Assembly (NCBI GenBank): GCA_023246355.1
Contig: JAHFIQ010000003.1
Location: forward strand, 85,018-149,017
DNA: 64,000 nt
Direction of reading: 5' to 3'
Source of the DNA: Candidatus Uhrbacteria bacterium
Lineage (GTDB): Bacteria; Patescibacteriota; Patescibacteriia; UBA9934; GWF2-40-263
In this document: positions 14,802-64,000 of the stretch, piece after piece
How the letters are laid out: each line of letters starts with the position of its first letter
Position numbering within the stretch: position 1 is the first letter of the stretch
The notes under the pieces: generated by a model
Told to the model about the DNA's origin: nothing
Database searches by the model: none
What the model saw: only the letters and a program-made list of their open reading frames with translations
Position numbers and translations under genes: made by a program

Positions 14802-15239
14802 TTACGTAGCGCCAGAGTCCACGACTTCCTCTTTCTCATCTTCGATTTGCAGGAACAGGGTCATGGTGCCGATCGACTGGACACTCAGATCCAGTGACAG
14901 GAACGCTGAGGAGAACTGTCCATCGACTTTGAAGGAGAATCCTTCGATCAAGACGACACAGGCAAGGCTCGTGCCGTCGACCGTGACCCCTTCGATCGTG
15001 TTGTCTTCGTGCTCGATCACGAACCCGTGGATGTTCATCTTGCCATCGAAGTCAAGATCCGCCCACAGCTCGCGATCGTGCTCGTAGAACTCAATCTTGA
15101 ACGTCGAATCCTTGTCCAAGACCTGAACCCCATCGACCGGACTACCGTCCCCAGGAAATCCCAGGTAGGTTCCCTCAATGATGTCGATGGTCTCCCCGCC
15201 GCCTGTGCCAGCACAGGCAAGAAACAGAAGTCCGAACAT
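14802..15239 (-). CDS. hypothetical lipoprotein
   Basis: Signal peptide with lipobox MFGLLFLACAG; acidic mature region. Confidence 0.5.
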   Translation of the reverse strand: MFGLLFLACAGTGGGETIDIIEGTYLGFPGDGSPVDGVQVLDKDSTFKIEFYEHDRELWADLDFDGKMNIHGFVIEHEDNTIEGVTVDGTSLACVVLIEGFSFKVDGQFSSAFLSLDLSVQSIGTMTLFLQIEDEKEEVVDSGAT

Positions 15240-20880: not shown

Positions 20881-22182
20881 CTAGCGCGTCGTTGTTGGCC
20901 TCAAGGGCCGTGCTTCTAGATGTGTGCGATCGATCCAGCGAAGGATCAAATCATCATGAACCGTGTTCCAGACGATCGAACCATCAGGGTGCTCGTGAAG
21001 GTTCCACGCGAGCGGCACAGCGGTGAGCCGACGTCCATGCACGATCGGCTTGTCCCAGACGCCATCGTGAACGATCACGGCTTCAATGGCACCTGCGTCG
21101 CTTACAAGAACCTCACGGACGACGACGCCCTCTGGAAACTCGCGATCCTCCACTGGGGTGACCAGATGCTCATGCCACTTCCCATCAAGCTTCACACGCA
21201 TACGAGCGGCAAAGGATGTCCCACTCTGTGACCAAAAAACATCTGGCCGTGCAAGCGTGAAAGCACCCTCATGGACGAGCGTCTGGTTGTTGAGCAGAAG
21301 TCTTCGTTCATCCCCCGCCGCGTCTCGAGGCCGCACAAGCGTGAGCAAACCCAAGTGGGTCGGTGAACTCCAGACCTCTTCAAGCTGTCCATCGATGGGA
21401 ACCAAGCGCGGCTTGCCGTCGACATGTTTCCCTGTCTCGATGAGAAGCGATCGGTACGGTGTGCGTGTGGCGAGCAGATGCTGACCCTGCCATCTCACGA
21501 AACGAATCGTGGGATCGATCGTACAAGGCGAAAATGGTTCGATGCCATCCTGACTGATCTCGTAGGCATACGAACGACCACCAAGTTCTTCCACCACGCA
21601 CAGTGTTTCATCTGCGTAGAGCTCAACCTTGGCTCCCGTGGCGATCGGCAGCAGTCCCCAGGGTGTGATGATCACGTTTTCCCCTGGAAAGGCAGCTTGC
21701 TCTCCCACAGGCATCCGCACGGCGCCATTTGTGTAGGAGCCGACCATGCGATTCATTGGGAAGAGATACTGACGCAGACCAGCTGCGATGAGCCAGACGC
21801 CAGGAGCATACCCACGCACCTGTCCCCAAACCAGAACATGGTTGTCATGGACACGCAGGATCCTCGTCCCGCCCTGGTCCTTCCCCACGAGCCGCTGAAA
21901 CACCATCCTGGCGTCAAAGCCACTGTGGAAGAGTTCTTCCTCCTGGTCGCGCGTCAGGATGATGGCCACATGGGAACCACTTGGCGTGCACGCAAGTTGA
22001 TCTCCGGCCATAAGCCGACGAAGCATCAGCGCACTTGGAGAGAGAGGAAGCTGACAGATCGTGTGCATCTCGCCCGAGAATCCGGGTTCAGACAAACGCA
22101 CGACGCTGCTTTGCGTCCTGGGAGTTGCGAGTGTGGTCACGGCAACCTCCTTGTTTTGCGTACACAGGATGCGTACGGTCAT
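20881..22182 (-). CDS. hypothetical protein (433 aa), moderately GC-enriched
   Basis: Long ORF with no recognised motifs and GC ~57%, above the local baseline. Several internal Met make the start uncertain. Confidence 0.45.
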   Translation of the reverse strand: MTVRILCTQNKEVAVTTLATPRTQSSVVRLSEPGFSGEMHTICQLPLSPSALMLRRLMAGDQLACTPSGSHVAIILTRDQEEELFHSGFDARMVFQRLVGKDQGGTRILRVHDNHVLVWGQVRGYAPGVWLIAAGLRQYLFPMNRMVGSYTNGAVRMPVGEQAAFPGENVIITPWGLLPIATGAKVELYADETLCVVEELGGRSYAYEISQDGIEPFSPCTIDPTIRFVRWQGQHLLATRTPYRSLLIETGKHVDGKPRLVPIDGQLEEVWSSPTHLGLLTLVRPRDAAGDERRLLLNNQTLVHEGAFTLARPDVFWSQSGTSFAARMRVKLDGKWHEHLVTPVEDREFPEGVVVREVLVSDAGAIEAVIVHDGVWDKPIVHGRRLTAVPLAWNLHEHPDGSIVWNTVHDDLILRWIDRTHLEARPLRPTTTR

Positions 22183-23533: not shown

Positions 23534-24355
23534 ATGGCAATGATTCTAGATGGTAGAACCCTCGCACAAAACATCCGTGAAAAAATAAAAGCTCGCGTGT
23601 CAACACTGGCAACCAAGCCAGGCCTGGCCGTTCTTTTGGTTGGCTCAGATCCTGCCAGCCACACCTACGTGGCCCTTAAAAAAAAGGCCTGTGAGGAAGC
23701 AGGAATCCGTTTTGAACAGCATCTCTATTTTGCCAACGAGTCTGAAGAGACACTCATCAAAAAAATTCACGAGCTGAATGCGCGAGAAGATGTAACCGGC
23801 ATCCTCGTTCAACTCCCCTTGCCCACACAGGATGCTGACCGTGTGATCGCTGAAATAGATTCACTCAAAGATGTCGACGGTTTCCATCCGGCGAATCTTC
23901 AAAATCTGGAAGCAGGAAAACCATCCATCGCCTCGGCCGTGGCCCTGGGGATTATGAAACTGATCGGTGAGGCGAAAGGATCCCAGGCCCTCATCGTCTC
24001 TTCTCCCTTGTTTGCAAGACCTCTTCAAATTCTCTTGCGCGAACGAAAGATCTTCTCGACTGTTGTGCAGAGCCATGATCCCCACCTTGCTGAAAAAACA
24101 CGCGCGGCAGATATTCTCATCACCGCTGTTGGACAACCGGTTCTGATCACTGGTGACATGGTGAAACCTGGTGCGACCGTGATCGATGTGGGAACCACAC
24201 GAACGGAAGTTGGTCTCAAAGGTGATGTGGACTTTGATTCTGTCTCACAGATCGCCGGAGCGATCACGCCAGTTCCAGGCGGCGTTGGGCCCATGACCGT
24301 CGCGATGTTGCTTGTGAATATCCTAAAAGCGTACGATTTACAGCGTCGGCATTGA
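23534..24355 (+). CDS. folD: bifunctional methylene-THF dehydrogenase/cyclohydrolase FolD
   Basis: MAMILDGRTLAQNIREKIKARV and VGSDPASHTYVALKKKACEEAGI signatures. Confidence 0.95.
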   Translation: MAMILDGRTLAQNIREKIKARVSTLATKPGLAVLLVGSDPASHTYVALKKKACEEAGIRFEQHLYFANESEETLIKKIHELNAREDVTGILVQLPLPTQDADRVIAEIDSLKDVDGFHPANLQNLEAGKPSIASAVALGIMKLIGEAKGSQALIVSSPLFARPLQILLRERKIFSTVVQSHDPHLAEKTRAADILITAVGQPVLITGDMVKPGATVIDVGTTRTEVGLKGDVDFDSVSQIAGAITPVPGGVGPMTVAMLLVNILKAYDLQRRH

Positions 24356-24379
24356 CATTTCTGAAATTTCCTGTATCAT
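24352..24379 (+). promoter_or_regulatory. strong sigma70-like promoter (TTGACA-16-TATCAT) for the GC-rich gene at 24463
   Basis: TTGACA at 24352-24357 (overlaps the folD stop) and TATCAT at 24374-24379. Confidence 0.55.
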
Positions 24380-24415
24380 ACTCGACTCGTGAGCGTCCTG
24401 CTTGCGATTCGACCT

Positions 24416-24441
24416 GTCACGTCGGTCGCGACCGACGTGAC
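24416..24441 (+). promoter_or_regulatory. perfect 13-bp-arm palindrome/hairpin in the 5' UTR
   Basis: GTCACGTCGGTCGCGACCGACGTGAC lies between the promoter and an AGGAG Shine-Dalgarno 8 nt before the ATG at 24463. Confidence 0.5.
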
Positions 24442-24462
24442 CTGCCACAGGAGACTGGACCG

Positions 24463-24798
24463 ATGTTGCCTCTCAAGCATATCAGTGGTCAGCAGCGTGT
24501 CGCCGCTCACGTCTTCATCGAAGACGGAGAGCGCGCGGTGTGTGTCGTGCTCTACAGCCGAGAGACCTCCAAGGCCGTGGACGCCCTGAGGTTGGAGGAG
24601 CGAGACATCGAGGTCGCGACGACCGAAGTCCGTCGCTGGATCCGTCCGCGGTTTCTCGATCGTGAGAGCCTCGATGAACTCATCGCCTGGGTTCGCGAGG
24701 ATCACGAAACCTGGCTCGAAGTCCTCTCCGGCGGCAACCCCATGACCGCCTGGCTGGGCTCGCGAGGCCGTCGCAGGATCCCCCAGATCGAGGCCTAG
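24463..24798 (+). CDS. hypothetical protein (111 aa), high-GC (foreign-looking) gene
   Basis: ORF MLPLKHISGQQRVAAHVFIEDGERAV...RRRIPQIEA at ~63% GC with GC3-rich codons, preceded by its own promoter, hairpin and SD. The competing antisense ORF 24376..24816 was not preferred. Confidence 0.5.
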   Translation: MLPLKHISGQQRVAAHVFIEDGERAVCVVLYSRETSKAVDALRLEERDIEVATTEVRRWIRPRFLDRESLDELIAWVREDHETWLEVLSGGNPMTAWLGSRGRRRIPQIEA

Positions 24799-24906: not shown

Positions 24907-25032
24907 GACCTCTGCAAAACTCGCGATCTTGCGTTTCACGGGCGCCCGTCGACCCCACTCTACATAGATAACCTACGTTTCGTGGGGCTCGACAGCCCGT
25001 TCAACGCAATCTCATCGAGTTTTTGAGAGGTC
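24907..25032 (-). repeat. MITE-like structured repeat, copy D (inverted orientation, diverged core)
   Basis: Termini GACCTCTGCAAAACTCGCGATCTTGCG ... CGCAATCTCATCGAGTTTTTGAGAGGTC match the reverse complement of copies A-C. The core has diverged. Overlaps the 3' end of CDS 25012-25419. Confidence 0.7.
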
Positions 25033-29209: not shown

Positions 29210-29821
29210 TCATGTTGCCGTGGAAATGAGCCGCGGCTTCACGAACAGGATGAACATCATGGTGCTCTCGATGGCCAGGAACGTGATGGGCTGTGCTGCG
29301 TCATCGAGCGACCACGAGGGCACTGCCGCTACCGCGAGCAGACAGGAAATCCAGTACAGCGTCCAGGCCAACTTGTCTTCTTCCCCTGGCTTGCCCCAGG
29401 CATTCTGGAAGGTCGGCACGGAGCCGATGAACATCGCGGTCAGGCTGGTTGTCAATCCAATGGTCGGACTGTCAAACACCTGCCACAAGACGATGGCCAG
29501 AGCCGCGCACAAGAGACAGAACTTGTCGAGCCACGTCCATCCTGGCTTGCCGTATTTGAGCGCGAGTGTAGCCACCGTCCATGTGCCGATGACGGCGGCG
29601 GTGATCTGGCCGTTCACGGAGTGACGCGCGAACATTCCGGTGAACGTGATCGAGTCCAGAGCACCCCAGATGATCCAGGACGTCTTCTGCGGCCTCGTCT
29701 CACCGCGCACCACTGCACAAATGTAAGGGATGTACGCAATGATGAACACGATGGCGGAGAGAGTGGAGAGGATCTGCACGTTGACCTCCTGTCGTATGCA
29801 ATCGACTAATGATTCTAGCAA
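29210..29821 (-). CDS. polytopic membrane protein (hypothetical; possible PQ-loop-like)
   Basis: 203 aa, ~6-7 TM, with RGETRPQKTSW after the first helix. Start uncertain. Confidence 0.4.
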   Translation of the reverse strand: MLESLVDCIRQEVNVQILSTLSAIVFIIAYIPYICAVVRGETRPQKTSWIIWGALDSITFTGMFARHSVNGQITAAVIGTWTVATLALKYGKPGWTWLDKFCLLCAALAIVLWQVFDSPTIGLTTSLTAMFIGSVPTFQNAWGKPGEEDKLAWTLYWISCLLAVAAVPSWSLDDAAQPITFLAIESTMMFILFVKPRLISTAT

Positions 29822-42285: not shown

Positions 42286-42409
42286 GACCTCTGCAAAACT
42301 CGATGAGATTGCGATGCGCGGGGAAGCCAGCCTCCGAGACGTAGTGAAAACTACGTTGAGGAGGTGGCGGGGCCCCGCAAGTCGCAAGATCGCGAGTTTT
42401 GCAGAGGTC
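42286..42409 (+). repeat. MITE-like structured repeat, copy A (124 bp)
   Basis: GACCTCTGCAAAACTCGATGAGATTGCGATGCGCGGGGAAGCCAGCCTCCGAGACGTAG-tgaaaa-CTACGTTGAGGAGGTGGCGGGGCCCCGCAAGTCGCAAGATCGCGAGTTTTGCAGAGGTC. Terminal inverted repeats of ~17 bp. Lies in the hrcA-grpE intergenic region. Confidence 0.8.
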
Positions 42410-47295: not shown

Positions 47296-47419
47296 GACCC
47301 CTGCAAAACTCGATGAGATTGCGGTGCGCGGGGAAGCCAGCCACCGAGGCGTAGCGATAGCTACGTTGAGGTGGTGGCGGGGCCCGCAAGCCGCAAGATC
47401 GCGAGTTTTGCAGGGGTCT
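47296..47419 (+). repeat. MITE-like structured repeat, copy B (124 bp)
   Basis: GACCCCTGCAAAACTCGATGAGATTGCGGTGCGCGGGGAAGCCAGCCACCGAGGCGTAG-cgatag-CTACGTTGAGGTGGTGGCGGGGCCCGCAAGCCGCAAGATCGCGAGTTTTGCAGGGGTC. Confidence 0.8.
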
Positions 47420-47461: not shown

Positions 47462-47740
47462 ATGACAACGGTGCAAGTTCGTATTGATGAAAAAACAAAA
47501 CGCGAAGCCAAGCGTGTGCTGGACGGTCTTGGCATTGACATGAGTGGCGCCATCAAACTCTACCTCCGCCAAATTTCTCTGCACCGAGGGATTCCACTGC
47601 CTCTGAGAACAAAAAATGGGTTAACACCTCAACAAGAAGTTGAGATTCTCACCGCGTCAAGTGAGGCAAAAGAAGGAAAAAACGTTTCAAAAAAAATGAG
47701 TCCTCGTCAGGCTCTCGACTATCTGAATTCACTCTCATGA
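47462..47740 (+). CDS. dinJ: RelB/DinJ-family antitoxin
   Basis: MTTVQVRIDEKTKREAKRVLDGLGIDMSGAIKLYLRQISLHRGIPLPL matches the DinJ ribbon-helix-helix pattern; 4-bp overlap with the toxin gene. Confidence 0.85.
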   Translation: MTTVQVRIDEKTKREAKRVLDGLGIDMSGAIKLYLRQISLHRGIPLPLRTKNGLTPQQEVEILTASSEAKEGKNVSKKMSPRQALDYLNSLS

Positions 47741-48000
47741 AAATTCAGTTTCACAAACGTTTTGAAAAACGTTTCCAACGACTCCCACCGCACTTGAAGC
47801 ACAAGGCAACGGAAGCCATCAATCGGTTCATGACAGATCCGTTCCATCCACTTTTACGGAATCACGCTCTCACAGGACGCATGAATGGAAAACGTGCATT
47901 TTATGTTTCGGCAAACGTTCGAATCATTTTTGAGGAACTGGATGGTTACACGCTGATTCTTCTCCTTGATATCGGATCTCACGAGATGGTTTACCGGTAA
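47737..48000 (+). CDS. yafQ: YafQ/RelE-family mRNA interferase toxin
   Basis: 87 aa; KRFQRLPPHLKHKATEAINRF...HPLLRNHALTGRMNGKRAFYVSANVRIIFEELDGYTLILLLDIGSHEMVY. Confidence 0.85.
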   Translation: MKIQFHKRFEKRFQRLPPHLKHKATEAINRFMTDPFHPLLRNHALTGRMNGKRAFYVSANVRIIFEELDGYTLILLLDIGSHEMVYR

Positions 48001-48056: not shown

Positions 48057-48131
48057 GGCCCCATCGTCTAACGGTTAGGACGGCAGGTTCTCATCCTGCA
48101 AACCGGGGTTCGATTCCCCGTGGGGTCACCA
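48057..48131 (+). tRNA. tRNA-Glu (anticodon CUC), CCA encoded
   Basis: Cloverleaf: acceptor GGCCCCA/TGGGGTC, D-arm GTCT-AACGGTTA-GGAC, anticodon arm GCAGG-TTCTCAT-CCTGC, T-arm CGGGG-TTCGATT-CCCCG, 3' ACCA. Confidence 0.85.
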
Positions 48132-48173
48132 ACTAAAACACCTGAGTTTTCTCGGGTGTTTTAGTTGGTGACC
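48124..48173 (+). repeat. 19-bp perfect inverted repeat that includes the tRNA-Glu 3' acceptor/CCA end
   Basis: GGTCACCAACTAAAACACC-tgagttttctcg-GGTGTTTTAGTTGGTGACC, followed at 48175-48215 by an inverted partial copy of the tRNA T-arm region (GTGGGGAATCGAAC) interrupted by the palindrome GCACATGCCctgcGGCATGTGC. Confidence 0.7.
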
Positions 48174-48291
48174 TAAGCACATGCCCTGCGGCATGTGCGT
48201 GGGGAATCGAACGCCGGAGCCATATGCGGCCAGCAGGCCGCATGGCGAGGCGGTGCCCAGCCCGAGCCGCTGCAGCGGCGAGAGGCGCGGG

Positions 48292-48312
48292 CGATTCCCC
48301 GTGGGGTCACCA
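48292..48312 (+). repeat. 21-bp direct repeat of the tRNA-Glu 3' end (att-like)
   Basis: cgattccccgtggggtcacca is identical to 48111-48131. The intervening 48216-48291 is ~70% GC and packed with palindromes (GCCGCTGCAGCGGC, CCATATGCGGCCagcaGGCCGCATGG). Confidence 0.7.
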
Positions 48313-54257: not shown

Positions 54258-55447
54258 AATCCAAGTCCAAAACTAAACAACGATCCCTTTCCTCGTGGAT
54301 TTTTTCCTGAACGCACCTCATCCCCATCACTCACCCCATCGCCGTCCGTATCAGCGCGGCCTCGATCTGTTCCATAAAACGCTTCCAAAATATCATCGAG
54401 TCCATCGCCATCTTGGTCATCGGATGCTTCGACAGTGGTGACGGGCAAGCGCGCAGTCTGCTCATCCAAGAGTGTAGCCTCGCCCAAACTTAGACTCGCT
54501 CCCGCAGACTCAGGAAACACGGCATGCAAAATATCCACAAACGAAATGGCATCAGAAGGCGCGGCGATGTCGCTCATCTCGTTGAACTTGGAAAAATCCA
54601 CGCGTGCATCAACCGGAATCAGATCCGTACTCCCCTCCTGTACAAATCCACCGGCCGCCTGCACTCGATACAGAACGTGGTCATCCATGCCGATCCAAAA
54701 CCGAAGCGTGAGTCGTGCGAGTTGCTTGGCCTGCGTGTGAGCAAGAATTCGATCTGTATCTTCTGGTTCCTTTCCTTCTTTGGCGCGAACAGCATCGAGC
54801 AGGAATGCTTCTGTTGCATCTTGATCAAACCTCCCGTCAATGATGTGGGTGTTGGTGCCATCGATGATCTCGGTAAGACCGTTATACTCGGCCACGACGA
54901 TATCGGTCAGCGCCAGCATGTAGCGAAGTCGAGTGATCGCGGCGGGATTCCAACCCGTCAGCGGCGTGATGAAGGTAAGCGGCGCCTGAAGCCCAGGCAC
55001 GATCTCACCCCAGCCTTCTATCTCTCCCTCATCAAAGACCACCCAGGTGTCACCATCAAATGACACACCTGGCACAGCAGGTCCAGGCACAGCGTAAGTC
55101 AGATACGTTTTTTCACCGATCGTCTTTACTTCACCTGAGAGATCTGTGTAATCATCGTTTTTGGAAATATGAATCACGCGAAACTCTGTATCCTGTTCTA
55201 GATTCTCGTCCTCATCAGCCTGCACATTGCCTGAGGCATACAAAGTCGTGCTCACACGTTCCCCGCCTTGCTCGCGGCTCCAGCTAAAACCGTCGTCATG
55301 GGAAAAACTCGAGAGACTCGCCATGGCAATGGCCATGCGCCGCATCTCAACCTCAGGTCGAAACTTGGTGAGCACCACGTAAGCAGCAAACGTCAAAGCC
55401 ATCACGACCACCACGCCAAGGGTTATAAATGTCAATAGGTGTTTCAT
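54254..55447 (-). CDS. membrane-anchored hypothetical protein with C-terminal calcium-binding-like DxDxDG repeats
   Basis: Start set at MKHLLTFITLGVVVVMALTF (ATG RC of 55445-55447). C-terminus DQDGDGLDD...DTDGDGVSDGDE. The track extension to 55552 runs through repeat copy C. Confidence 0.5.
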   Translation of the reverse strand: MKHLLTFITLGVVVVMALTFAAYVVLTKFRPEVEMRRMAIAMASLSSFSHDDGFSWSREQGGERVSTTLYASGNVQADEDENLEQDTEFRVIHISKNDDYTDLSGEVKTIGEKTYLTYAVPGPAVPGVSFDGDTWVVFDEGEIEGWGEIVPGLQAPLTFITPLTGWNPAAITRLRYMLALTDIVVAEYNGLTEIIDGTNTHIIDGRFDQDATEAFLLDAVRAKEGKEPEDTDRILAHTQAKQLARLTLRFWIGMDDHVLYRVQAAGGFVQEGSTDLIPVDARVDFSKFNEMSDIAAPSDAISFVDILHAVFPESAGASLSLGEATLLDEQTARLPVTTVEASDDQDGDGLDDILEAFYGTDRGRADTDGDGVSDGDEVRSGKNPRGKGSLFSFGLGL

Positions 55448-55450
55448 ACA

Positions 55451-55574
55451 GACCTTTGCAAAAATCGATGAGATTGCGATGCGCGGGGAAGCCAGCCGCC
55501 GAGACGTAGGTAATCCTACGTTGAGGTGGTGGCGGGGCCCCGCAAGTCGCAAGATCGCGAGTTTTGCAAAGGTC
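55451..55574 (+). repeat. MITE-like structured repeat, copy C (124 bp)
   Basis: GACCTTTGCAAAAATCGATGAGATTGCGATGCGCGGGGAAGCCAGCCGCCGAGACGTAG-gtaatc-CTACGTTGAGGTGGTGGCGGGGCCCCGCAAGTCGCAAGATCGCGAGTTTTGCAAAGGTC. Confidence 0.8.
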
Positions 55575-55612
55575 TATAACAAAAGAGACAGCGTTTGCTG
55601 TCTCTTATTCTA

Positions 55613-56056
55613 TCAAAGTTCGGTCACATCGTCTTCTGAAACATACCTCCCCAGGTAGACCAGATTCTCCCCTGTTTCCTCGTTGCCGATGATTCTCAAA
55701 ATTTCACCTTCTGCTGTTTGATAATCGCTCACGAGAAACGTGTCGTCGACTTCGGCCACGGATTCACCGTTGGTGTCCATGACCGTGCCAGCTTCCTCAG
55801 AGGTGAATTCGTATTCCTTCTCTTTGAGCGTGACCGTGTCGCCTTCTGGCTCGATTTCGTCGTCGATCTCTTTGAAGAAAATAAGCTCTTCGTCTTTGAG
55901 GGACACAGAGAACAGATTTCCCTCGTCATCATAGAACCAACGCAGCTTTGCGCCGTCGTCGATTTCGATTTGCGCGTGACCAACGTAGGTAAACGGATCC
56001 GTGCCAATTTTGAGTGCGTCACCTAAATGTAGTCTCCAAAGGTCTTTGATCGTCAT
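55613..56056 (-). CDS. hypothetical acidic protein (147 aa)
   Basis: ORF rich in D/E (EIDDEIEPEGDTV) with no recognised catalytic motif. Confidence 0.45.
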   Translation of the reverse strand: MTIKDLWRLHLGDALKIGTDPFTYVGHAQIEIDDGAKLRWFYDDEGNLFSVSLKDEELIFFKEIDDEIEPEGDTVTLKEKEYEFTSEEAGTVMDTNGESVAEVDDTFLVSDYQTAEGEILRIIGNEETGENLVYLGRYVSEDDVTEL

Positions 56057-56133
56057 AATGGTTCCTCCTTAAAAATACAGGAGGATTAAAACACGCCAAC
56101 GCTTTTGTGTCTACTCCTCTAGTTTTCCCCACC

Positions 56134-56158
56134 CAAGTTGGGAGCCTGGCTCCCAACT
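56134..56158 (+). promoter_or_regulatory. 25-bp perfect palindrome AAGTTGGGAGCC-T-GGCTCCCAACTT followed by a T-run
   Basis: At the low-GC/high-GC boundary. Could be a terminator-like hairpin or a dimeric protein-binding site. Confidence 0.4.
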
Positions 56159-56182
56159 TTTGGCTTATTTTAGCTACGTACC

Positions 56183-56211
56183 CTTGACAAAACCGTCAAA
56201 ATATGATATCT
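56183..56211 (+). promoter_or_regulatory. sigma70-like promoter (TTGACA-17-TATCTT) for the high-GC gene at 56306
   Basis: cccTTGACAaaaccgtcaaaatatgaTATCTTac; TTGAC...GTCAA also forms a small palindrome. Confidence 0.45.
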
Positions 56212-56305
56212 TACTCGCCTCAGAATGTGGCGGGTTATCTGAGTGACGGACAGAAGTCACTGAGACCACCCGCTGCTTCTGCAGCACTTTTCCCAGGAGT
56301 ACATC

Positions 56306-56986
56306 TTGTCTGTTCCCCAACTCAAGCCGCCGTTCGCGCGCGTCTTCCTGATGATCCGCATCAACCCGCGGAAGGTCAGCCGCTTCGAGCAAGCCGGCAT
56401 CCGTATCGTCCGGCGCACGGCCGAGCGTGACGAGGCCATCCGTGCGAGGCATGCCGAGCAGGTCGGCGAGGAGAAGTACGAACGGTTCGGACTCCGGCAG
56501 GACGCGGAGGGCAACCTTCGCGGCCACTCGGGAGAACCCGTGTTCGGCTTCAACCGCAAGGGCATCCCCCACGAAGCGATCAAGCTGTTCCACCTCCACG
56601 ACGACCTCCAGACGGCCGGCTACAGGCTGATCCGGATGGAGATCGTGATCAAGCCGCGCACGGAGGAGAACAAGCTCGAGAAGAAGCCCGACATGGGCGT
56701 GCTGGTCCTGGCCTACGAGCAGGAAGGCACGGAGGTCGCCCTCACGCAGCTTCAGCTCCAGATGCTCGGCAACGAGCTCTCACGCTACTTCCAACACGTC
56801 CACGTCTGGGACAACAGGGACGCCGACGGCTCTGCCGCGGTGAACCCGTCCCACGTGGTCGAGGAGAAGGACGAGGGGAAGCTCACCGACCCGCGCCTGC
56901 TGCGCCTCCAGATCCTCGACAGCGGGGAGCCGGAGTGGATCAACGAGCCCGAGGCGGCCCCTGCCGCGATGGCCGCCAACGGCTAG
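56306..56986 (+). CDS. hypothetical protein (226 aa), high-GC (~65%) island gene
   Basis: ORF with strongly GC3-biased codons (CTG, GGC, GAG, AAG, GAC), unlike the core genes. No family assigned. An alternative start exists at MIRINPRKV. Confidence 0.5.
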   Translation: MSVPQLKPPFARVFLMIRINPRKVSRFEQAGIRIVRRTAERDEAIRARHAEQVGEEKYERFGLRQDAEGNLRGHSGEPVFGFNRKGIPHEAIKLFHLHDDLQTAGYRLIRMEIVIKPRTEENKLEKKPDMGVLVLAYEQEGTEVALTQLQLQMLGNELSRYFQHVHVWDNRDADGSAAVNPSHVVEEKDEGKLTDPRLLRLQILDSGEPEWINEPEAAPAAMAANG

Positions 56987-57005
56987 CAACGCACTGCCCC
57001 GTGCG

Positions 57006-57070
57006 AAGAAGAGTCCCCGCGTGATTTCGATCACCGGAAACGAGACTCGACTTCGCGCGGGGCTCTTCTT
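57006..57070. other. 15-bp perfect inverted repeat (AAGAAGAGTCCCCGCG ... CGCGGGGCTCTTCTT) between convergent island genes
   Basis: Stem with a 34-nt loop. Possible bidirectional terminator. Confidence 0.4.
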
Positions 57071-57081
57071 ATCCAAAAAAT

Positions 57082-57627
57082 CTACCGTCGATACAAAAAG
57101 ACATTCGGCTGACCTTGTGCCATATCGATGACGTCATCTTCCCAACCATCGATCGGCCAAACATAACTCACGACTCTGGCTCCTGGTTTCAATTCCGCTT
57201 CCAGCTTTGGACGGATTTTTTTGTAGGCCGCGGGCATGAGAAATAGATAAACCACGTCGTAATCTGAGAGGGGGTGCTTGAATACATTTCCAAGGACGAT
57301 TTCAGGAAAAGTGACGATCGCAAAATTTTGAAACTTTTTTTGCGATCGCAAAAAGGCCACCTGCATTTTTGCGATCGTCCACTGGAGCAGGGACAACTCC
57401 ACTCCCACGATCCTTCCTGCCTGAGTCGTTTGTGCTAGATGCCGACAGACGCGTCCATTCCCACAGCCAAGCTCCACAAACATTTCCCCTGGTTGCAGAG
57501 CTACCAACCGCTCGATTCGTTTCAAATCCTTCTTCCACGTCGGCACCCACGGCGCGCCTTGGGTACTGGCATAAGCAACAGAGGCAAGAAGAATCAACCC
57601 GAGACTCAACAAAATATTTGGAACCAT
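57082..57627 (-). CDS. class I SAM-dependent methyltransferase with N-terminal signal/TM segment
   Basis: Motif I VELGCGNGRV. Start set at MVPNILLSLGLILLASVAYA. High GC. Confidence 0.65.
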   Translation of the reverse strand: MVPNILLSLGLILLASVAYASTQGAPWVPTWKKDLKRIERLVALQPGEMFVELGCGNGRVCRHLAQTTQAGRIVGVELSLLQWTIAKMQVAFLRSQKKFQNFAIVTFPEIVLGNVFKHPLSDYDVVYLFLMPAAYKKIRPKLEAELKPGARVVSYVWPIDGWEDDVIDMAQGQPNVFLYRR

Positions 57628-57659
57628 ACGACAACAAGTATAACAAAAAACCGCCGCGA

Positions 57660-58610
57660 CTACTCGCGACGGATGACGTTGACGTCGAACCCGAAGATGT
57701 CTCGTTCTCCTCGTGTGGCAGCGATGCCATCCTCGTCTGCAACCGCCGTCACGCAGTGCCACAAAGGGCTGCCCTTGTCTGCGTGGAAAATGCCCAGACC
57801 TGGGGTAAGTGTGAGATCCAGCAAGTGCGTCTGCTTGTCGGCTCCGGTGATGTAGCTCACTCCACCGACCACTCCTTCTCGCACCACAACGAGTGCTGAG
57901 ACGATGTAGTCGGCGCCGTCTTGATGCAATCCCTCAGGCGCATTGCTGCGCGCTTCACCAGGTCGAGCCAGAAGCCCCATCTGATGAAACGTGATCTCGA
58001 GGTCTTGAATGACGCGGCCTTGATCCCCCTCGGCATCCTCGGTCATCTCAGCAACAGCGATGACGAGACGATGAAACTCGACATGCTCCACCAGCTCGGC
58101 AGCCGTGGGATCGAAGATGCGTTCGATCGTGCGAGGATCGCTTCCACCCACCTCTTGGGTAAACCCGTGACACTCGGTTCTGACCACATGCCACTGCGCA
58201 TCCCAGTTTCCCGTCGCCCGGTTGGTGAGATGAAATCTCGCGATCGACCGTCGTCGATAGGAACGAATCCGCTCGAAGCGAATCTGATCCTGCGTTGGCA
58301 GTCGACGGAAGTACGGAATGAGGTCAATGACGTTTCCCTCCTGTGCAAAGTAGCTGGGGAGGAAACGGTCAAACCACGGCGCGTCAGCAGGAAAACGTTC
58401 CCGAAGAAACGCGACCTGCTCACGTTTCACATCATAGAGATCCCACGAAAGCCTTTGAAAGCTTGGCGCGAGATCTCGGAGAAACCGCTCAGGGTGAACC
58501 CCGATGCCTTCCAGGTTGAACACGCGAATGGGATGTGTGATCACCACGCCGCGTGCTCTTGCAATCTCTTCCTCTGTCAGCACGTACCTGATCCCAGATT
58601 GGCGTTCCAT
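57660..58610 (-). CDS. 2OG-Fe(II) oxygenase-like/cupin-type protein (putative)
   Basis: HQDGADYIVSALVV (HxD) plus downstream WHCV His, suggesting a 2-His-1-carboxylate facial triad. Start set at MERQSGIRYV. Family assignment tentative. Confidence 0.4.
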   Translation of the reverse strand: MERQSGIRYVLTEEEIARARGVVITHPIRVFNLEGIGVHPERFLRDLAPSFQRLSWDLYDVKREQVAFLRERFPADAPWFDRFLPSYFAQEGNVIDLIPYFRRLPTQDQIRFERIRSYRRRSIARFHLTNRATGNWDAQWHVVRTECHGFTQEVGGSDPRTIERIFDPTAAELVEHVEFHRLVIAVAEMTEDAEGDQGRVIQDLEITFHQMGLLARPGEARSNAPEGLHQDGADYIVSALVVVREGVVGGVSYITGADKQTHLLDLTLTPGLGIFHADKGSPLWHCVTAVADEDGIAATRGERDIFGFDVNVIRRE

Positions 58611-58618
58611 GATTCCTC

Positions 58619-60568
58619 CTACCTCGGCGCGCGGCCATCGAGTTCCATCTGGCGGATCTCGGCCATCCATTTCACCTTGAGGGCTTTGGCCTCTGCCTTG
58701 GTCATCTCAGTACCTCCTGGCAGCAAGGCCTTCACCGTACAGTTCACCAGCGCCTGAAGCGTCTGGTAGCGACGAGTGTCCTCGATGTCAGAAGGAAGTC
58801 GGTCTTCTATGAGTCCGATCACCTCTTCCACCGTGAGCCCGTCTTCGTCGGCGGCGGCAGTGAGATCCGCACGCAGCGAACCGAAGTCGGCTGCTGAGTA
58901 TCCTTCCGTGGCCGCACACAGCGCTTTCCACGGCTCCCCATGCATGGCGATCTCCGGGAGAACCGGCTTGATCGCCCACAGGATGAATGCATCCCGATCT
59001 GCGCCTACCGCATCCAGCACAGGAATGATGAGATCACCGGCGCGTCCAGGTCGCCGCATGTCTGGCGACAAGTCCTGGATCCGTGCCGTCATGAGGCACC
59101 ACACGACTTTTCCACGCAGCTTGGGATCGCTCATCCACTTCTGGAATTCACCGGTGAGCCGACGTTCGGTCTCGTGGGTATCAGCACCAACGCCACCAAA
59201 CACCGTGTCAGCTTCGTCCACAAACGGCATGGCACGATCGAGACTCGTGAGAACCCGGTACAAACGCTCCAGCATGATGTCGGTTTCCCCGAACCACTTG
59301 CTGCGAAGGTTGCCCAGCTCCAGCACGACCATTCCCAGTTCAGCCGCGAACGCCTCGAAGATGAAGCTCTTGCCACCGCCGATGGGACCTGAGACCCCGA
59401 AACCTGAGATCGCCTTTTTTCCTCCCGCCTTGATGCGCGGGAGAATTTTCGTGGTCAAAAACACGACCAAATCCGTTGCCCCAACCACATCCTTCAGTCG
59501 ATGCGCCGGCTTCTTGAACTTCACGACGCCTTCGCCCAACTGCGAGATGATGTAGGCCTCCACACGAGAGAGCACATGAGAAGGATCGAGGATCTGACCG
59601 TCGTAGACGTTGCCCATCAACATCTGCCGCAGAGCATGGATCGTGAGACCCGCAGAGAGCTCCGAGAGTTCTGCCTGTGTCCCCCAAAGCTTGATCTTGT
59701 TTCCTTCCTCCTGGTTACGGTTGAACCAGGTGATGAAGTGGCTTCGCGCTTCGGTGTTGGGACTGGGAATCGCCACACGCAAGACTTGCGGCAGCTTGAC
59801 CACGCGATGATTCACGCTTGCAGCTGACTCGGCGATCAAGACCACGGAGTCCTGTGCATGGAGAAACTCCGGATCCGAGAACCAGCTTTGGCAGATCATC
59901 ACTCGATGACGATCCGCCTCGTTGAGACTCGTGATCTGTCCTTCAGGAATGATCGTGTCCGCGCGCTCGATCAGAATCACCAGTCGCCTGCCATACAAGG
60001 CATCGCCCTGCACGGCCGCACGAGAAACCTTGCACATCTCGGCAAGCAGGGTGAGAGCCACCGCAGGTTTGCCCATTACGCGGGTGAGGTACTCGTCGAA
60101 TTCTGGTCCGGACGCCGCGAGCTTCTTGGCCTCTTCGCCGTGAGAGAGCATGCGCCGAATCGCCAGATCATCCGCGGATAGCCCGGTCTGCTGCTTCACC
60201 CAATCAGTCCTCATGGCCTCACGGTCGCTTTCGCGAGCAAATCGGATGGGACCATTGAGACTATAGGTCAGAAGCACCACACTCTCGGGCTTCCCCCAAT
60301 GCGCCCTGAGATTGTCGGCGATTGGGACGTAGCGCCCGAACTCGCTGTCTTGAGACAGGGTGGGTGGAAGCCAGAACAGGTCCTCGACATTGCCGGTGAG
60401 CACAATCGTGCGGGCAGAACCCGCATTCAAGATGTCCGCCGCCTCGCGACGCCAGGGGTATTCCAGATGGGGAATGGACATGAATCCTCCAGAGAACTTG
60501 TCTTCGGACGACGAATCATTCGTCGTCCAGAGAAAAGGGTCGATGTGAAATCGACCGGTGAGCGACAC
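58619..60568 (-). CDS. classic-clade AAA ATPase with a ~370-aa N-terminal domain of unknown function
   Basis: C-terminal module GVSGPIGGGKSFIFEAFAAELG...LRSKWFGETD...PFVDEADTVFGG...TARIQDLSPDMRRPGRAGD follows the CDC48/FtsH-type AAA consensus (Walker A/B, SRH-like, Arg finger). Confidence 0.8.
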   Translation of the reverse strand: MSLTGRFHIDPFLWTTNDSSSEDKFSGGFMSIPHLEYPWRREAADILNAGSARTIVLTGNVEDLFWLPPTLSQDSEFGRYVPIADNLRAHWGKPESVVLLTYSLNGPIRFARESDREAMRTDWVKQQTGLSADDLAIRRMLSHGEEAKKLAASGPEFDEYLTRVMGKPAVALTLLAEMCKVSRAAVQGDALYGRRLVILIERADTIIPEGQITSLNEADRHRVMICQSWFSDPEFLHAQDSVVLIAESAASVNHRVVKLPQVLRVAIPSPNTEARSHFITWFNRNQEEGNKIKLWGTQAELSELSAGLTIHALRQMLMGNVYDGQILDPSHVLSRVEAYIISQLGEGVVKFKKPAHRLKDVVGATDLVVFLTTKILPRIKAGGKKAISGFGVSGPIGGGKSFIFEAFAAELGMVVLELGNLRSKWFGETDIMLERLYRVLTSLDRAMPFVDEADTVFGGVGADTHETERRLTGEFQKWMSDPKLRGKVVWCLMTARIQDLSPDMRRPGRAGDLIIPVLDAVGADRDAFILWAIKPVLPEIAMHGEPWKALCAATEGYSAADFGSLRADLTAAADEDGLTVEEVIGLIEDRLPSDIEDTRRYQTLQALVNCTVKALLPGGTEMTKAEAKALKVKWMAEIRQMELDGRAPR

Positions 60569-60579
60569 GGGATCCGTGT

Positions 60580-61527
60580 CTATGAGCGAGGGGCGAGAAC
60601 CCCCTCGGCTTGGCCTTGTGCAACCGTTTCCCAGAACGTGCGGTGTTCATGGGGATCGAGATCCCGCCCATCGAAGACGATCTCGTAGAGCTCCTCAGCT
60701 TGGTGCGTGATGCGACCGTTCCTGATCGGATCAGACGCGTGGAAGACGGGCGCGGCCTTGTCGTAGACCACACGCGCTCCTCGACCATCTCGTCCCTTCC
60801 AATGCTTGGAAAGGCCGATCACACGATCGCCGACATGCACAGCTTCTTCCAATTGATGGGTGACCATGATGACCGTGTGCGGAGGTTCCCCTCCTTCCTG
60901 AACAGCCTTCATGTTTTCGTCATAGAGATCCAGCAAGACCCGACGTGCGTCGTGGCGCGTTTCCTCGTCGAGGGCTCCGAAGGGCTCATCCAGAAGCAGA
61001 ATCTCCGGCTGCATGATGAGTGCCCTGGCAATCGCGACACGTTGCCGCTGACCACCAGAGAGCTGATGGGGAAACTTGTGCGTATGGCCTGCAAGACCAA
61101 GGCGCGCAAGCATCGCTTCACTTGCTTCCAGTTGTGCTTTGCGTGCCCGACGCCAGGAGCCGGTGATCGATCCCACCAGCCTTGCGGGAATGGTTGTGCT
61201 CCCCAGCATGAGGCCCAGAGCCACATTGTGAAGCGCACTCAGATGCGGGTACAGCGAGTACTCCTGGTACACCATGCCGCGGTCCGGTCCATGGCCCTGC
61301 ACCTCGTAGCTCTCTCCGGCTCGCGTGAGTAGGATTCTCCCGGACGTGGGTTCATGCGTCCCAACGATCATGTTGAGCAGCGTGGACTTTCCACAGCCGG
61401 AGGAGCCGACCATGGCCACGATCTGACCGCGAGCGATCTTCACGTTGATGCCGGTGAGCACCTGCGTGGCTCCAAATGCCTTGTGAACATCCACACAATC
61501 CAGGGCGACCTGGTAGCGAGCTTCCAT
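60580..61527 (-). CDS. ABC transporter ATP-binding protein (NitT/TauT-type importer)
   Basis: GSSGCGKST Walker A, LSGGQRQRVAIARAL signature and LLLDEPFGALD Walker B. Start ATG overlaps the permease stop (ATGA). Confidence 0.9.
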   Translation of the reverse strand: MEARYQVALDCVDVHKAFGATQVLTGINVKIARGQIVAMVGSSGCGKSTLLNMIVGTHEPTSGRILLTRAGESYEVQGHGPDRGMVYQEYSLYPHLSALHNVALGLMLGSTTIPARLVGSITGSWRRARKAQLEASEAMLARLGLAGHTHKFPHQLSGGQRQRVAIARALIMQPEILLLDEPFGALDEETRHDARRVLLDLYDENMKAVQEGGEPPHTVIMVTHQLEEAVHVGDRVIGLSKHWKGRDGRGARVVYDKAAPVFHASDPIRNGRITHQAEELYEIVFDGRDLDPHEHRTFWETVAQGQAEGVLAPRS

Positions 61528-62366
61528 CACTGTCCCTCCCGGACATACCAGGGGCAGAGCAGCCGCTGGACTTGGTTGAAAAACACTTGGATCCCGATTC
61601 CCATGAACCCGAGGGCCATGAGATACGGAATCACCACGTCCATGCGAGCCGATCGGTACAGACGCAGGAAGCGATAGCCATAGCCCGCCTGTCCTGCAAC
61701 CCATTCGGTTGCGACCAGCAAGATGAGGGCCAGCCCCACACTTGCTCGAATGGCATCGATGATCTGGGGAAGCACCTGCCAAAACAGGATGCTCCAGACA
61801 ATCTCTTGGTTGCTGGCGCCAAGCGTCTTGGCACTGAAGATGTGTTCGTCGTGCACTTCGCGCACCGCGGCGTAGACCCTGCCGGCAATCACTGGCAAAA
61901 TCCCGAACACGATGACCGCGGCAAACATCTTGAACTCGAACCCGAACAGGGTGATGAACACGACCATGGCGACATTGGGAACGATGTTCTCCTCGAAGTT
62001 GAGAAGGCGTCCCCACATGCTTTCGGCCGCGACATAGGTTCCCATGTAGAGCCCCAGCACCACTCCCAGAACACTGGCGATCCCGATCGCTGGCACGAGC
62101 CGGGCGTAGGAATCGATCGTGTCCTTCAAGAGGACATAGTCACCGCTCTTGGGATCCTTCCACATCTCGCCCACGCCGTGGAACAACTTGCCCCACGTCG
62201 GAATCAGCGTGTTGTCGCCCAGGTAGGCCAGAGCCGTGTAGGCGGTAAGGATGAGGAGAATCGCCAGGGCGAAGTAGCAACGAGAGAGCCAGGCAGGCAG
62301 ACTCTCGCGCATGGTGAAGGTGGCGCGAATGTAGTCACGCCAAGAGCGCGTACGAATCTGGTCCAT
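61527..62366 (-). CDS. ABC transporter permease (NitT/TauT family)
   Basis: 6-TM binding-protein-dependent permease with an EAA-like loop region. Start set at MDQIRTRSW. Confidence 0.8.
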   Translation of the reverse strand: MDQIRTRSWRDYIRATFTMRESLPAWLSRCYFALAILLILTAYTALAYLGDNTLIPTWGKLFHGVGEMWKDPKSGDYVLLKDTIDSYARLVPAIGIASVLGVVLGLYMGTYVAAESMWGRLLNFEENIVPNVAMVVFITLFGFEFKMFAAVIVFGILPVIAGRVYAAVREVHDEHIFSAKTLGASNQEIVWSILFWQVLPQIIDAIRASVGLALILLVATEWVAGQAGYGYRFLRLYRSARMDVVIPYLMALGFMGIGIQVFFNQVQRLLCPWYVREGQ

Positions 62367-62471
62367 GGTGGACTCCGTGGAAAAAACGTCTCTTCGGATG
62401 ACGACCATCGTCATCCAGAGAAAAGGGTCGACGCACCTGGCTTCAAGAGCCAGGGGTCGACCTGAGTGCGG

Positions 62472-63653
62472 CTAGCGCACGAGCGACGTGTCGAAGCGCA
62501 GCAGCGCGGTGGGAGCGGACTCCTTCGTGCCCCAGGCCATGGGGATCGCGTCCACGGAATCCACGAGCTTGTGGACGACCGAGAACTCCTGCACGAGCGG
62601 CATGTTGGCGCGGAACGTCGGCGAGTCCAGCACATCCGCGTCGTTGGGACCCATCATGTGGGTCAGCTCCATGGAGCGGCCGATTGCGCCGTTGTCCAGG
62701 TCGTTGAACTGCGGGCTGATGGCCCGGTAGGTCTGTGCCTGCTGCGAGGGATCCCGACTGCGAGCGGTCATGCTCTGCATGGCCAGCCCCAGGACCCGCA
62801 CACCTTCACGTCCGCCGGCTCGATCGAGCGCCTTCTGGCCCACCACCAACATGTCGGTGATCTCGTAGTCCTGGAGCATCGAGCTGTTGAACAGGTCGCG
62901 CACATCGTCGGCTTTGTCCTCGTTGCCGTTTCGGGTATCCAGGACCGTGAAGGTCTCCGGACTCCATCCACCGAAGGCGCGCAGCGCCGGATCTTGGCGA
63001 CCCGCGAACTGCGTGGAACCCACGACCGGGTCGAGGTTCACGAACGTGTAGTCGGATCCGTAGCGGCCGGCCACGTTGTTCACGGTGCAGGCACGCCAGT
63101 ACAGGTACTGGGTGACCGAGAACTCGGCGCCGTGCACGGGCACGCCCGCGAGGTCTGCCCAGGTTGCGATCTCATCTTCCACGAGGATCTTGTCCGCGCC
63201 GTCCGACCAGGAGGTCGGAAACACGGCCACGGTTGCGTCCCCGCTGCTCTTCTTGCGCTCACCGGCAACCGCGAAGGCGTCGGTGTTGGTGATGAGCAGC
63301 GCGTCCACGGTCCCGGCGCCGTACACGCCGAAGGACTGCACGTAGTCCATGCGCTGGAGCACGACATCCACGCCGTTGTCCCGTTCGAACTGGCCCTGCC
63401 AGCCCTGCCGGTTGTCGATGTAGCCGAAGGCCTCGGCACTCGCCAGAGCCGACCACGAGGTGTAGGGCGACCAGGCGAGCGTGAAGACCGGCGTCCCTGC
63501 GGGCGCTTCGGTCTTCTGCGCGAGAGGATTGGCCGCGCTGCTGGGCTGAACGGTCACCTCCGGAGGGGAACCGATTCCGTCACTGGGACCCGAATTGCGG
63601 TTGTCCTGGCTGGCGCAGGCGATGAGCATGATGAGAGGAACGAGGGGAAGCAT
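62472..63653 (-). CDS. ABC transporter substrate-binding lipoprotein
   Basis: Signal peptide with lipobox LIMLIACASQ. Periplasmic-binding-protein-size mature domain. Start set at MLPLVPLIML. Confidence 0.75.
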   Translation of the reverse strand: MLPLVPLIMLIACASQDNRNSGPSDGIGSPPEVTVQPSSAANPLAQKTEAPAGTPVFTLAWSPYTSWSALASAEAFGYIDNRQGWQGQFERDNGVDVVLQRMDYVQSFGVYGAGTVDALLITNTDAFAVAGERKKSSGDATVAVFPTSWSDGADKILVEDEIATWADLAGVPVHGAEFSVTQYLYWRACTVNNVAGRYGSDYTFVNLDPVVGSTQFAGRQDPALRAFGGWSPETFTVLDTRNGNEDKADDVRDLFNSSMLQDYEITDMLVVGQKALDRAGGREGVRVLGLAMQSMTARSRDPSQQAQTYRAISPQFNDLDNGAIGRSMELTHMMGPNDADVLDSPTFRANMPLVQEFSVVHKLVDSVDAIPMAWGTKESAPTALLRFDTSLVR

Positions 63654-63775
63654 CTGACGTCTCCGTGTTGAACGGCTCGCAAGCGAGCCTTGGGTGATCA
63701 CTCTTTCCGGGTTTCCCCGGTCAGGGTGGTGAAAAGTCACGTCGGTATGATCGACGTGACAGCTTGTGCGAAGCG

Positions 63776-64000
63776 CTAGCTCAGCTTCTCTGCAGCGGCC
63801 GCCGGCGCATCCGGTACCCTGGTCTTGGTCTCGACCTGCTCGGCCAGGCCCAAGAGCGCCGCGAACTCGATGGACGCTTGGGCTTCGTGAGCAGAGGCGA
63901 GGTACTGCGACTCGCTGACAGCCGCATCCGTTCCCGCGAGCTCGGAGGAGACACGCGCTTCGGCTTCGGCCTGACCCACGACCTCGCGAATCGAGGAGAG
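63776..64000 (-). CDS. possible 3' part of a gene continuing beyond the window end
   Basis: High-GC minus-strand ORF (GTG start in the track; may extend upstream past 64000) ending ...LGLAEQVETKTRVPDAPAAAAEKLS. Weak. Confidence 0.2.
   Translation of the reverse strand, partial: LSSIREVVGQAEAEARVSSELAGTDAAVSESQYLASAHEAQASIEFAALLGLAEQVETKTRVPDAPAAAAEKLS

Follow-up and report, generated by a model that had tools for sequence, protein, structure and literature searches.

Operons that combine a PspA-family protein with an AAA+ ATPase and an ATP-binding cassette (ABC) importer have already been described by comparative genomics, with OGG56892.1 from Candidatus Handelsmanbacteria as an example (PMC11237479, mSystems 2024). 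The described set consists of PspA, a membrane-anchored divergent Snf7 protein, an AAA+ protein with an inactive N-terminal domain, an ABC ATPase, a permease, and a PBPb+OmpA protein, and its proposed role is an ATP-dependent membrane remodelling linked to solute transport (PMC11237479). Here, a stretch of 64,000 nucleotides (hereafter, the window) from a Candidatus Uhrbacteria bacterium of the candidate phyla radiation (CPR) was analyzed (assembly GCA_023246355.1, contig JAHFIQ010000003.1, positions 85,018 to 149,017), the right-hand end of which is markedly GC-rich. Most of this GC-rich block is formed by a nine-gene operon on the minus strand, which, judged by its Pfam and NCBIfam assignments, is a further example of the already described operon type. 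The operon is widespread in other phyla, occupies one conserved locus in an Uhrbacteria-like CPR clade, and has co-diverged there with the neighbouring core genes. With moderate confidence, we favour the reading that the block of approximately 14 kb, centred on this operon, goes back to an ancient acquisition by the ancestor of the clade, followed by vertical inheritance.

The compositional step is real, and the window holds the left 8 kb of the block, which spans 56.3-69.9 kb. Over positions 56170-64000, the GC content was 0.5967, compared to 0.5117 over 1-56169, a difference of about 8 standard deviations of same-sized baseline windows (7.8-kb windows with a mean of 0.5115, a standard deviation of 0.0108, and a maximum of 0.532). 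Tetranucleotide usage deviated as well and correlated with the baseline at 0.72-0.88 in the block, compared to 0.93-0.97 for baseline windows. An earlier reading of the window from its letters alone (the sequence-only reading) had put the contrast at about 62-65% against 50-53% GC. The step holds up quantitatively, but the overall level is about 60%, as values of 0.63-0.66 were reached only in the last 2 kb, at 62-64 kb. The same reading had described the island as occupying the last 8 kb or so of the window; the high GC runs past the window end to approximately 69.9 kb on the source contig. Likelihood change points were placed at 56326 and 69895 on this contig, both coinciding with gene starts, and the latter marks the right-hand boundary.

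Furthermore, every gene of the island had been claimed to be rich in GC at third codon positions (GC3), which is correct for most of them. While 50 baseline open reading frames (ORFs) had a mean GC3 of 0.54 (standard deviation 0.06), the orphan gene ORF226 reached 0.91, the AAA+ gene 0.70, the ABC ATPase gene 0.66, the permease gene 0.77, and the gene of the stand-alone binding protein 0.86. A dioxygenase gene was intermediate (GC 0.574, GC3 0.62), and a methyltransferase gene was found at baseline (GC 0.495, GC3 0.53) and is thus not part of the anomaly; it is present in relatives, likewise with a core-like GC. The contrast to the core genes secA and dnaK was borne out, as both are present in the window and have baseline composition. 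The block is a composite and not a single unit, with the GC-extreme orphan gene followed by the baseline-GC methyltransferase gene, a lineage-specific dioxygenase gene of CPR type, and finally the operon.

Read on the minus strand from its right end at 69.9 kb, the operon starts with domain matches to an NMT1-type binding lipoprotein (616 aa) and a VWA protein (310 aa). The third gene encodes a PBPb+OmpA binding protein of 515 aa (TIGR03427/SsuA-like at residues 92-310, OmpA at residues 414-502), and the fourth a membrane-anchored protein of 252 aa whose hydrophobic N-terminal segments precede a helical region. These four genes lie beyond the PspA-like gene, up to position 69920 of the source contig. 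The PspA/IM30-like gene (276 aa, assigned by a profile match) enters the window with its 3' end only (63776..64000) and extends to 64606 on the contig extension, locus L001. It is followed by a solute-binding lipoprotein with a signal peptide ending in LIACAS (62472..63653, 393 aa, GC 0.657), an ABC permease (61527..62366, 279 aa, PF00528), and an ABC ATPase of the nitrate/sulfonate/taurine type (60580..61527, 315 aa, PF00005). The last gene of the operon encodes a classical AAA+ ATPase of the SpoVK/Ycf46/Vps4 type (58619..60481, 620 aa), for which more than 1800 homologues were found, about 50% identical across phyla. Its N-terminal 350 residues are conserved, although the recognised classical AAA domain (PF00004) covers the C-terminal residues 363-482 only. 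Shared with the operons of PMC11237479 are the PspA-family protein, the membrane-anchored helical protein, an AAA+ protein of about 600 aa with a C-terminal AAA domain, the ABC ATPase, the permease, and the fusion of a binding protein with OmpA.

The 276-aa protein belongs to the PspA/IM30 (ESCRT-III-type) family according to profile comparisons. A profile built from 13 homologues matched Vipp1/PspA structures (E = 4e-4, positions 56-233), and PF04012 was matched by 7 of the 13 (best E = 5e-6), while the window's own copy alone fell short of significance. For the 252-aa protein, neither Pfam nor the PDB sequences yielded a significant Snf7 or ESCRT-III match in HMMER profile searches, and an assignment as Snf7 was not recoverable with HMMER; a weak ZorA match (E = 0.004) was judged to be noise. 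The importer is related to NitT/TauT ABC importers, with its best matches among sulfate, nitrate, taurine, and urea models, but missed all curated thresholds (e.g., 171.6 vs. 342.75 bits and 85.7 vs. 333.9 bits). In detail, the ATPase matched the NCBIfam sulfate, nitrate, and taurine ATPases, the permease SaoP, TauC, and NtrB, and the 393-aa lipoprotein the putative urea ABC substrate-binding protein TIGR03427 (E = 3e-24), each below the cut-off. Judged by these families and by PMC11237479, the AAA+ ATPase may act together with the PspA-like protein in an ATP-driven remodelling or repair of the cytoplasmic membrane, and this activity would be coupled to small-solute uptake by the ABC importer with its wall-tethered binding proteins.

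The operon was found at the same locus in six relatives, with AAA+ identities to the window of 78% (L018), 62% (L015 and L022), 61% (L104), and 50-51% (L028 and L101). The best named AAA+ homologue (62%) is that of Candidatus Uhrbacteria GW2011_GWF2_39_13, which corresponds to L015/L022. Wherever the loci of the relatives reach the left flank, the order is operon, methyltransferase, slot gene, DUF4178, TSP3, PBP, and mostly then MurF. On the other side, L101, the only useful locus from a metagenome scan with the NMT1 protein, carries a CobA-NUDIX gene 6 kb upstream of its operon that shares 60% identity with its counterpart on the source contig. An empty site was seen in none of the relatives. 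Between the window and L018, operon genes are 69-79% identical (PspA-like 55%) and core genes 62-82%; for L015, the corresponding values are 41-72% and 50-71%. The proteins of block and core have diverged in parallel where both were comparable, and the AAA+ proteins of the five relatives included in a neighbour-joining tree (all but L104) cluster with that of the window. The same locus, the parallel divergence, and the AAA+ grouping together indicate that the block is older than the split of these lineages. The host itself is placed as an Uhrbacteria-like CPR bacterium by its synteny and by 62-71% identity to the contig of Candidatus Uhrbacteria GW2011_GWF2_39_13. One of the relatives, L028 (CAZIDX010000001.1), is titled 'uncultured Gammaproteobacteria', yet shows the operon-DUF4178-TSP3-PBP-MurF synteny of the Uhrbacteria-like clade with a PBP 72% identical; its label or binning is probably wrong.

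The relatives also share the compositional offset. The GC content of the block compared to its flanks was 0.58-0.66 vs. 0.51-0.53 in the window, 0.48-0.57 vs. 0.42-0.43 in L015, 0.61-0.68 vs. about 0.60 in L018, 0.60-0.64 vs. 0.535-0.554 in L104, and 0.57-0.66 vs. 0.48-0.52 in L028 and L101. Across the clade and L029, a further close operon relative, the excess of the block over its flanks amounted to +0.05 to +0.10, at background GC contents from approximately 0.42 to 0.60.

For the distribution beyond the clade, 185,579 species genomes (one genome per species) were scanned and the best 80 loci were examined. The same nine-gene order was present in Verrucomicrobiota, Planctomycetota, Desulfobacterales, Acidobacteriota, CSSED10-310, and others, and a shorter pair of PspA-like and AAA+ genes in Poribacteria, Hydrogenedentota, and Nitrospiraceae. 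In other phyla, the GC content of the operon equals that of its flanks, with a median difference of +0.008 over 29 loci, 3 of them from the Uhrbacteria-like clade. Among the best 80 loci, host flanking synteny was seen only in L022 and L028, of which only L022 is titled as CPR; these 80 also included L029. A wide distribution elsewhere, a narrow one within the CPR (among these 80 loci), and a deviant composition only there favour an ancient transfer into the clade ancestor. The ancestor would have acquired the operon once from a more GC-rich, non-CPR bacterium, with the insertion site presumably between the CobA-NUDIX gene and the DUF4178-TSP3-PBP gene group. Vertical inheritance would have followed, and the excess GC may be a remnant of this origin, possibly reinforced by a local bias.

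A sharp GC step in a metagenome assembly could also stem from an assembly or binning chimera, in which the contig of a high-GC organism was joined to a genome of 51% GC. However, an exact-sequence look-up of the ABC ATPase led to the ENA contig ERZ27276474:k141_1963465 (168,750 bp), whose locus L001 matches the window exactly over the 13,421 bases that both have in common and extends 7.5 kb past the window end, and Logan contigs from the runs SRR14366787 and SRR14366785 were 100% identical over 55539-70269 and 58678-70261, respectively. Three independent assemblies (MEGAHIT-style from ENA, Logan from other runs) thus agree at 100% identity across both edges. In addition, the junction of DUF4178, ORF226, and the methyltransferase recurs in ENA and Logan contigs of additional samples, at least five samples contain the left junction, and divergent relatives show the same junctions. 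As independent assemblies span both edges, the block is not a mis-join, and a chimera is practically excluded. The sequence-only reading had instead proposed a genomic island from a high-GC donor, and a recent arrival, for example from an actinobacterium, would account for the sharp step, the actinobacterium-like GC3 of 0.91 in ORF226, and the two tRNA genes at the right edge. These are tRNA-Pro(CGG) and tRNA-Pro(GGG), located in tandem on the plus strand at 70223-70387 (1141-1305 in L001), with a NUDIX-CobA gene of baseline GC beyond them, and it is their 5' side, not their 3' side, that faces the block. Against a recent arrival, the block lies at the same locus in relatives down to 50% AAA+ identity and has diverged in parallel with the core genes, and the GC contrast recurs in other metagenomes, where homologues of ORF226 (61-78% identical) adjoin DUF4178. 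Pfam and NCBIfam scans found no integrase, transposase, or other mobility domain among the called genes at 56.3-69.9 kb. Likewise, no att-like direct repeat was detected when 55400-57200 was searched against 69500-71527 by blastn-short (the best hit was a chance 20-mer of 90% identity on the opposite strand), and neither an att-like repeat nor a tRNA fragment was found at the left edge. Among named AAA+ homologues, that of Candidatus Uhrbacteria is the closest, the named dioxygenase homologues include three CPR lineages, and no match in either search was named as an actinobacterium. A recent island is thus very unlikely. Of the earlier claim, the foreign origin remains the favoured part, while its recency is not upheld, and the search for a donor by protein comparison revealed wide homology but no taxon that could be named.

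Several points weigh against the ancient acquisition that we favour. The rarity in CPR refers to the best 80 loci and not to a full census, and no donor lineage can be named, with all AAA+ homologues from outside the clade being about 47-52% identical. In the midpoint-rooted neighbour-joining tree of the AAA+ proteins, the clade is sister to the other phyla and not nested inside one of them, so that direction and timing of the transfer are deduced from distribution and composition only. The proposed function, too, is derived solely from gene families and comparative genomics. A further point is the persistence of the GC offset, for which block and core were compared at conserved fourfold-degenerate codons. 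The fourfold-site GC (block/core) was 0.75/0.59 in the window, 0.53/0.33 in L015, 0.87/0.79 in L018, and 0.79/0.41 in L028. Between L015 and L028, the fourfold identity beyond chance was only 0.02 ± 0.03 in the block and 0.01 ± 0.03 in the core (0.06-0.13 in other deep pairs), and despite this near saturation, block and core are still 0.20 and 0.38 apart in fourfold GC in these two genomes. In an equal-input substitution model, the excess identity is proportional to the product of the 'memory' factors of two lineages, and the remaining offset is the ancestral offset multiplied by a lineage's own factor. By our own rough calculation, this demands an ancestral GC contrast of about 0.7 or more, and of more than 0.9 for the pair L015-L028. 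Such a contrast of 0.7-0.9 is possible only if the recipient was very AT-rich and the donor very GC-rich, and slow amelioration consequently explains the offset only marginally, as a borderline case. A stronger claim, namely that fourfold saturation refutes neutral amelioration outright, was dropped, as unequal lineage rates fit most pairs at an initial contrast of about 0.7; the saturation is suggestive evidence against it. Alternatively, the high GC of the operon in this clade might be actively maintained instead of being a fading donor trace, and the operon could then be old or even native. Possible mechanisms are selection on synonymous sites, e.g., for C-ending codons or the stability of a long mRNA, and GC-biased gene conversion at a frequently recombining locus. 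Such maintenance would fit the offset in all six syntenic relatives and L029 over their wide range of background GC, as well as the fourfold gap that persists near saturation in deep pairs. Closer pairs keep more fourfold identity in the block than in the core (0.28 vs. 0.12 for the window and L018), suggesting a constraint on synonymous sites. Moreover, the enrichment is mainly one of C on the coding strand, and the slot genes beside the operon, from two unrelated families, also have a GC3 of 0.73-0.91. On the other hand, low-GC Verrucomicrobiota (L059, L083, L052) carry the operon at flank GC, so that there is no general functional need for high GC, and DnaK and SecA are not GC3-rich in the window genome, meaning that high expression is not tied to high GC3 here. 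The neutral model also fits most pairs, in the same rough calculation, if unequal lineage rates and a very GC-rich donor are granted. That the operon and the slot orphan genes form a compositional domain, whose high GC3 (mainly C) was actively maintained clade-wide while the genomes drifted between approximately 42% and 60% GC, is a serious alternative, though we consider it less likely, and the clade-wide GC excess is incompletely explained.

Between the operon and DUF4178 lies a distinct slot whose content changes more rapidly. At its left end, the sequence-only reading had reported a 25-bp perfect palindrome at 56134-56158 together with a promoter. The palindrome exists, but is located at 56135..56159 on the plus strand, with 12-nt arms around one central base and a subsequent T-run, and resembles a terminator in the divergent intergenic region of DUF4178 and ORF226. 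A simple terminator scan did not report this hairpin because its loop is too short for the rules of the scan. L013 and L012 retain the hairpin and its T-run, and the arms there show compensatory changes, e.g., from GGGAGCC/GGCTCCC to GGGAACC/GGTTCCC. The promoter was found as well: a sigma-70-type promoter of ORF226 at 56184..56212 (plus strand; TTGACA, a 17-nt spacer with extended TG, TATCTT) agrees with 10 of 12 consensus positions, was the only match in the region, and is conserved in L013 and L012. Downstream follows a structured 5' leader (56213..56305, plus strand), in which a long outer stem, CAGAAUGUGGCGGG / CCCGCUGCUUCUG, surrounds a variable inner hairpin. Across four loci whose ORF226 proteins are 61-78% identical, this leader is near-invariant and more conserved than the gene, and 4 of 24 predicted pairs show double compensatory changes among the four sequences. 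Searches against Rfam assigned no family to the leader, with only chance-level matches in E-value mode; at the gathering threshold, tRNA-Glu was the only hit in the search. Being conserved, folded, and outside the Rfam families, the leader is a candidate cis-regulatory RNA.

ORF226 itself (56306..56986, plus strand) starts at TTG 56306 or at a conserved ATG at 56351 and has the most extreme composition of the block (GC 0.66). Only five homologues were found, all of which adjoin DUF4178 and have a GC3 of 0.86-0.91, and a distant copy is present in L015. The gene evolves as a coding sequence; structure prediction returned no usable fold. Between the convergent ORF226 and methyltransferase genes, a long hairpin at 57006..57070 (AAGAAGAGTCCCCGCG ... 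CGCGGGGCTCTTCTT) probably acts as a two-way terminator. The methyltransferase (57082..57627, minus strand, 181 aa) is a class I S-adenosylmethionine (SAM)-dependent enzyme with an N-terminal hydrophobic segment, which matched Pfam Methyltransf_11/25 and, below the cut-off, an NCBIfam protein-lysine N-methyltransferase. PADLOC found no known defence system, and its sole clear match, the methyltransferase as mad2, was judged to be a generic methyltransferase similarity.

The adjacent 2-oxoglutarate (2OG)-Fe(II) dioxygenase gene (57660..58610, minus strand, 316 aa) clearly matches PF10014, with 81.7 bits compared to a cut-off of 23.1 and a coverage of profile positions 4-191 of 192. It is a lineage-specific insertion between the AAA+ and methyltransferase genes and has no counterpart at this position in L015, L018, L028, and L104. 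Its named homologues include those of Candidatus Uhrbacteria (48%), Sungbacteria (43%), and Parcubacteria (40%), and also of Armatimonas and Bacteroidota. Given the homologues in the three former lineages, the gene is an accessory from within the CPR and not high-GC cargo. The family as a whole includes free amino-acid hydroxylases such as L-isoleucine dioxygenase; here, it is represented by an accessory of a single lineage with CPR homologues.

In relatives, the position between methyltransferase and DUF4178 is occupied by unrelated orphan genes from at least two families, always on the opposite strand (12417-13052 in L018, 12609-13298 in L104, and 8096-8872 in L028). The slot genes of L018 and L104 share one family that is unrelated to ORF226 and also GC3-rich, while the slot of L028 holds a radical-SAM-like gene and an ORF of 258 aa. 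The slot genes measured (window, L015, L018, and L104) covered a GC3 range of 0.73-0.91.

Besides the main block, several small GC-rich patches occur in the genome. The small ORF at 24463-24798 (GC 0.634) and the segment 48216-48291 (GC 0.776), to which the sequence-only reading had ascribed the same character, are indeed both GC-rich. Isolated ORFs at 20881-22182, 24352-24798, 29210-29821, and 14802-15239 have a GC of 0.55-0.61 and a GC3 of 0.62-0.77 and lack a Pfam match. At tRNA-Glu, the last ~20 nt of the gene (GATTCCCCGTGGGGTCACCA) are repeated approximately 180 nt downstream at 48293-48312 (region 48057-48312), with a spacer of 78% GC between the two copies. The arrangement resembles the att-type scar that an integrated element would leave, and just upstream of this tRNA gene, a RelB/YafQ toxin-antitoxin pair is encoded (47462-48000). 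With regard to the two tRNA-Pro genes, their anticodons CGG and GGG read GC-rich proline codons, and they directly adjoin the GC-rich block; in L101, there is no tRNA gene within 10 kb on the corresponding side of its operon.

A family of 124-nt intergenic repeats was found at 24907-25032 (minus strand), 42286-42409, 47296-47419, and 55451-55574. The copies are 77-93% identical, and their ends are inverted copies of each other, as in a miniature mobile element. The copy at 55451-55574, called repeat copy C in the sequence-only reading, lies immediately left of DUF4178. In the sample ERZ27296333, a 13.5-kb contig encodes an identical DUF4178 protein, but continues past the repeat copy (approximately 55450-55613 of the window) into an RVT_1 reverse transcriptase and glycosyltransferases instead of TSP3-PBP. 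Either this contig represents a structural variant, or the repeat has led to a mis-join. A coupling protein of the TrwB/TraG type (type IV secretion or DNA transfer) is encoded at 3937-6039, where the window has baseline composition.

For genome annotation, the locus calls for caution. With its sharp GC step next to tRNA genes, the block looked freshly acquired, while the relatives reveal a fixed, clade-wide feature, and composition alone badly misdates the block. Apart from this, a complete PspA/AAA+ operon for predicted membrane remodelling, together with a dedicated ABC importer, is placed in CPR bacteria with small genomes, for which envelope maintenance and solute scavenging are central to the episymbiotic lifestyle. 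As the block is GC-richer than the neighbouring core genes in six relatives of very different background GC, it may be a case of stalled amelioration. If the offset were maintained, synonymous selection or, at a recombination hot spot, biased gene conversion could set a stable local GC equilibrium, and the locus would go on resembling a 'foreign island' indefinitely. With its six genomes, the clade offers a concrete data set on uncultivated bacteria in which selection and biased gene conversion at synonymous sites can be tested.

Compared to classical tRNA-linked genomic islands, the block shares the deviant GC, GC3, and tetranucleotide usage, the sharp edges, the adjoining tRNA genes, and the self-contained operon cargo. 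It differs in that integrase and att duplication are absent, the tRNA genes face the wrong way, and the block is fixed and syntenic across the clade, not variable between close relatives. The amelioration model of horizontally acquired DNA, reportedly put forward by Lawrence and Ochman in 1997, agrees with the finding that the GC of the block has moved with each host, as seen from a fourfold GC of 0.53 in the relative with 42% GC and of 0.87 in the one with 60% GC. In contrast to the model, the offset from the core has not closed although the synonymous sites of deep pairs are nearly saturated, and a fit is reached only with an extreme initial contrast. With respect to the operons of PMC11237479, the operon of the window adds an NMT1-type lipoprotein, a VWA protein, and a second, stand-alone binding lipoprotein, and our analysis documents a fixed order of nine genes that is conserved across many phyla.

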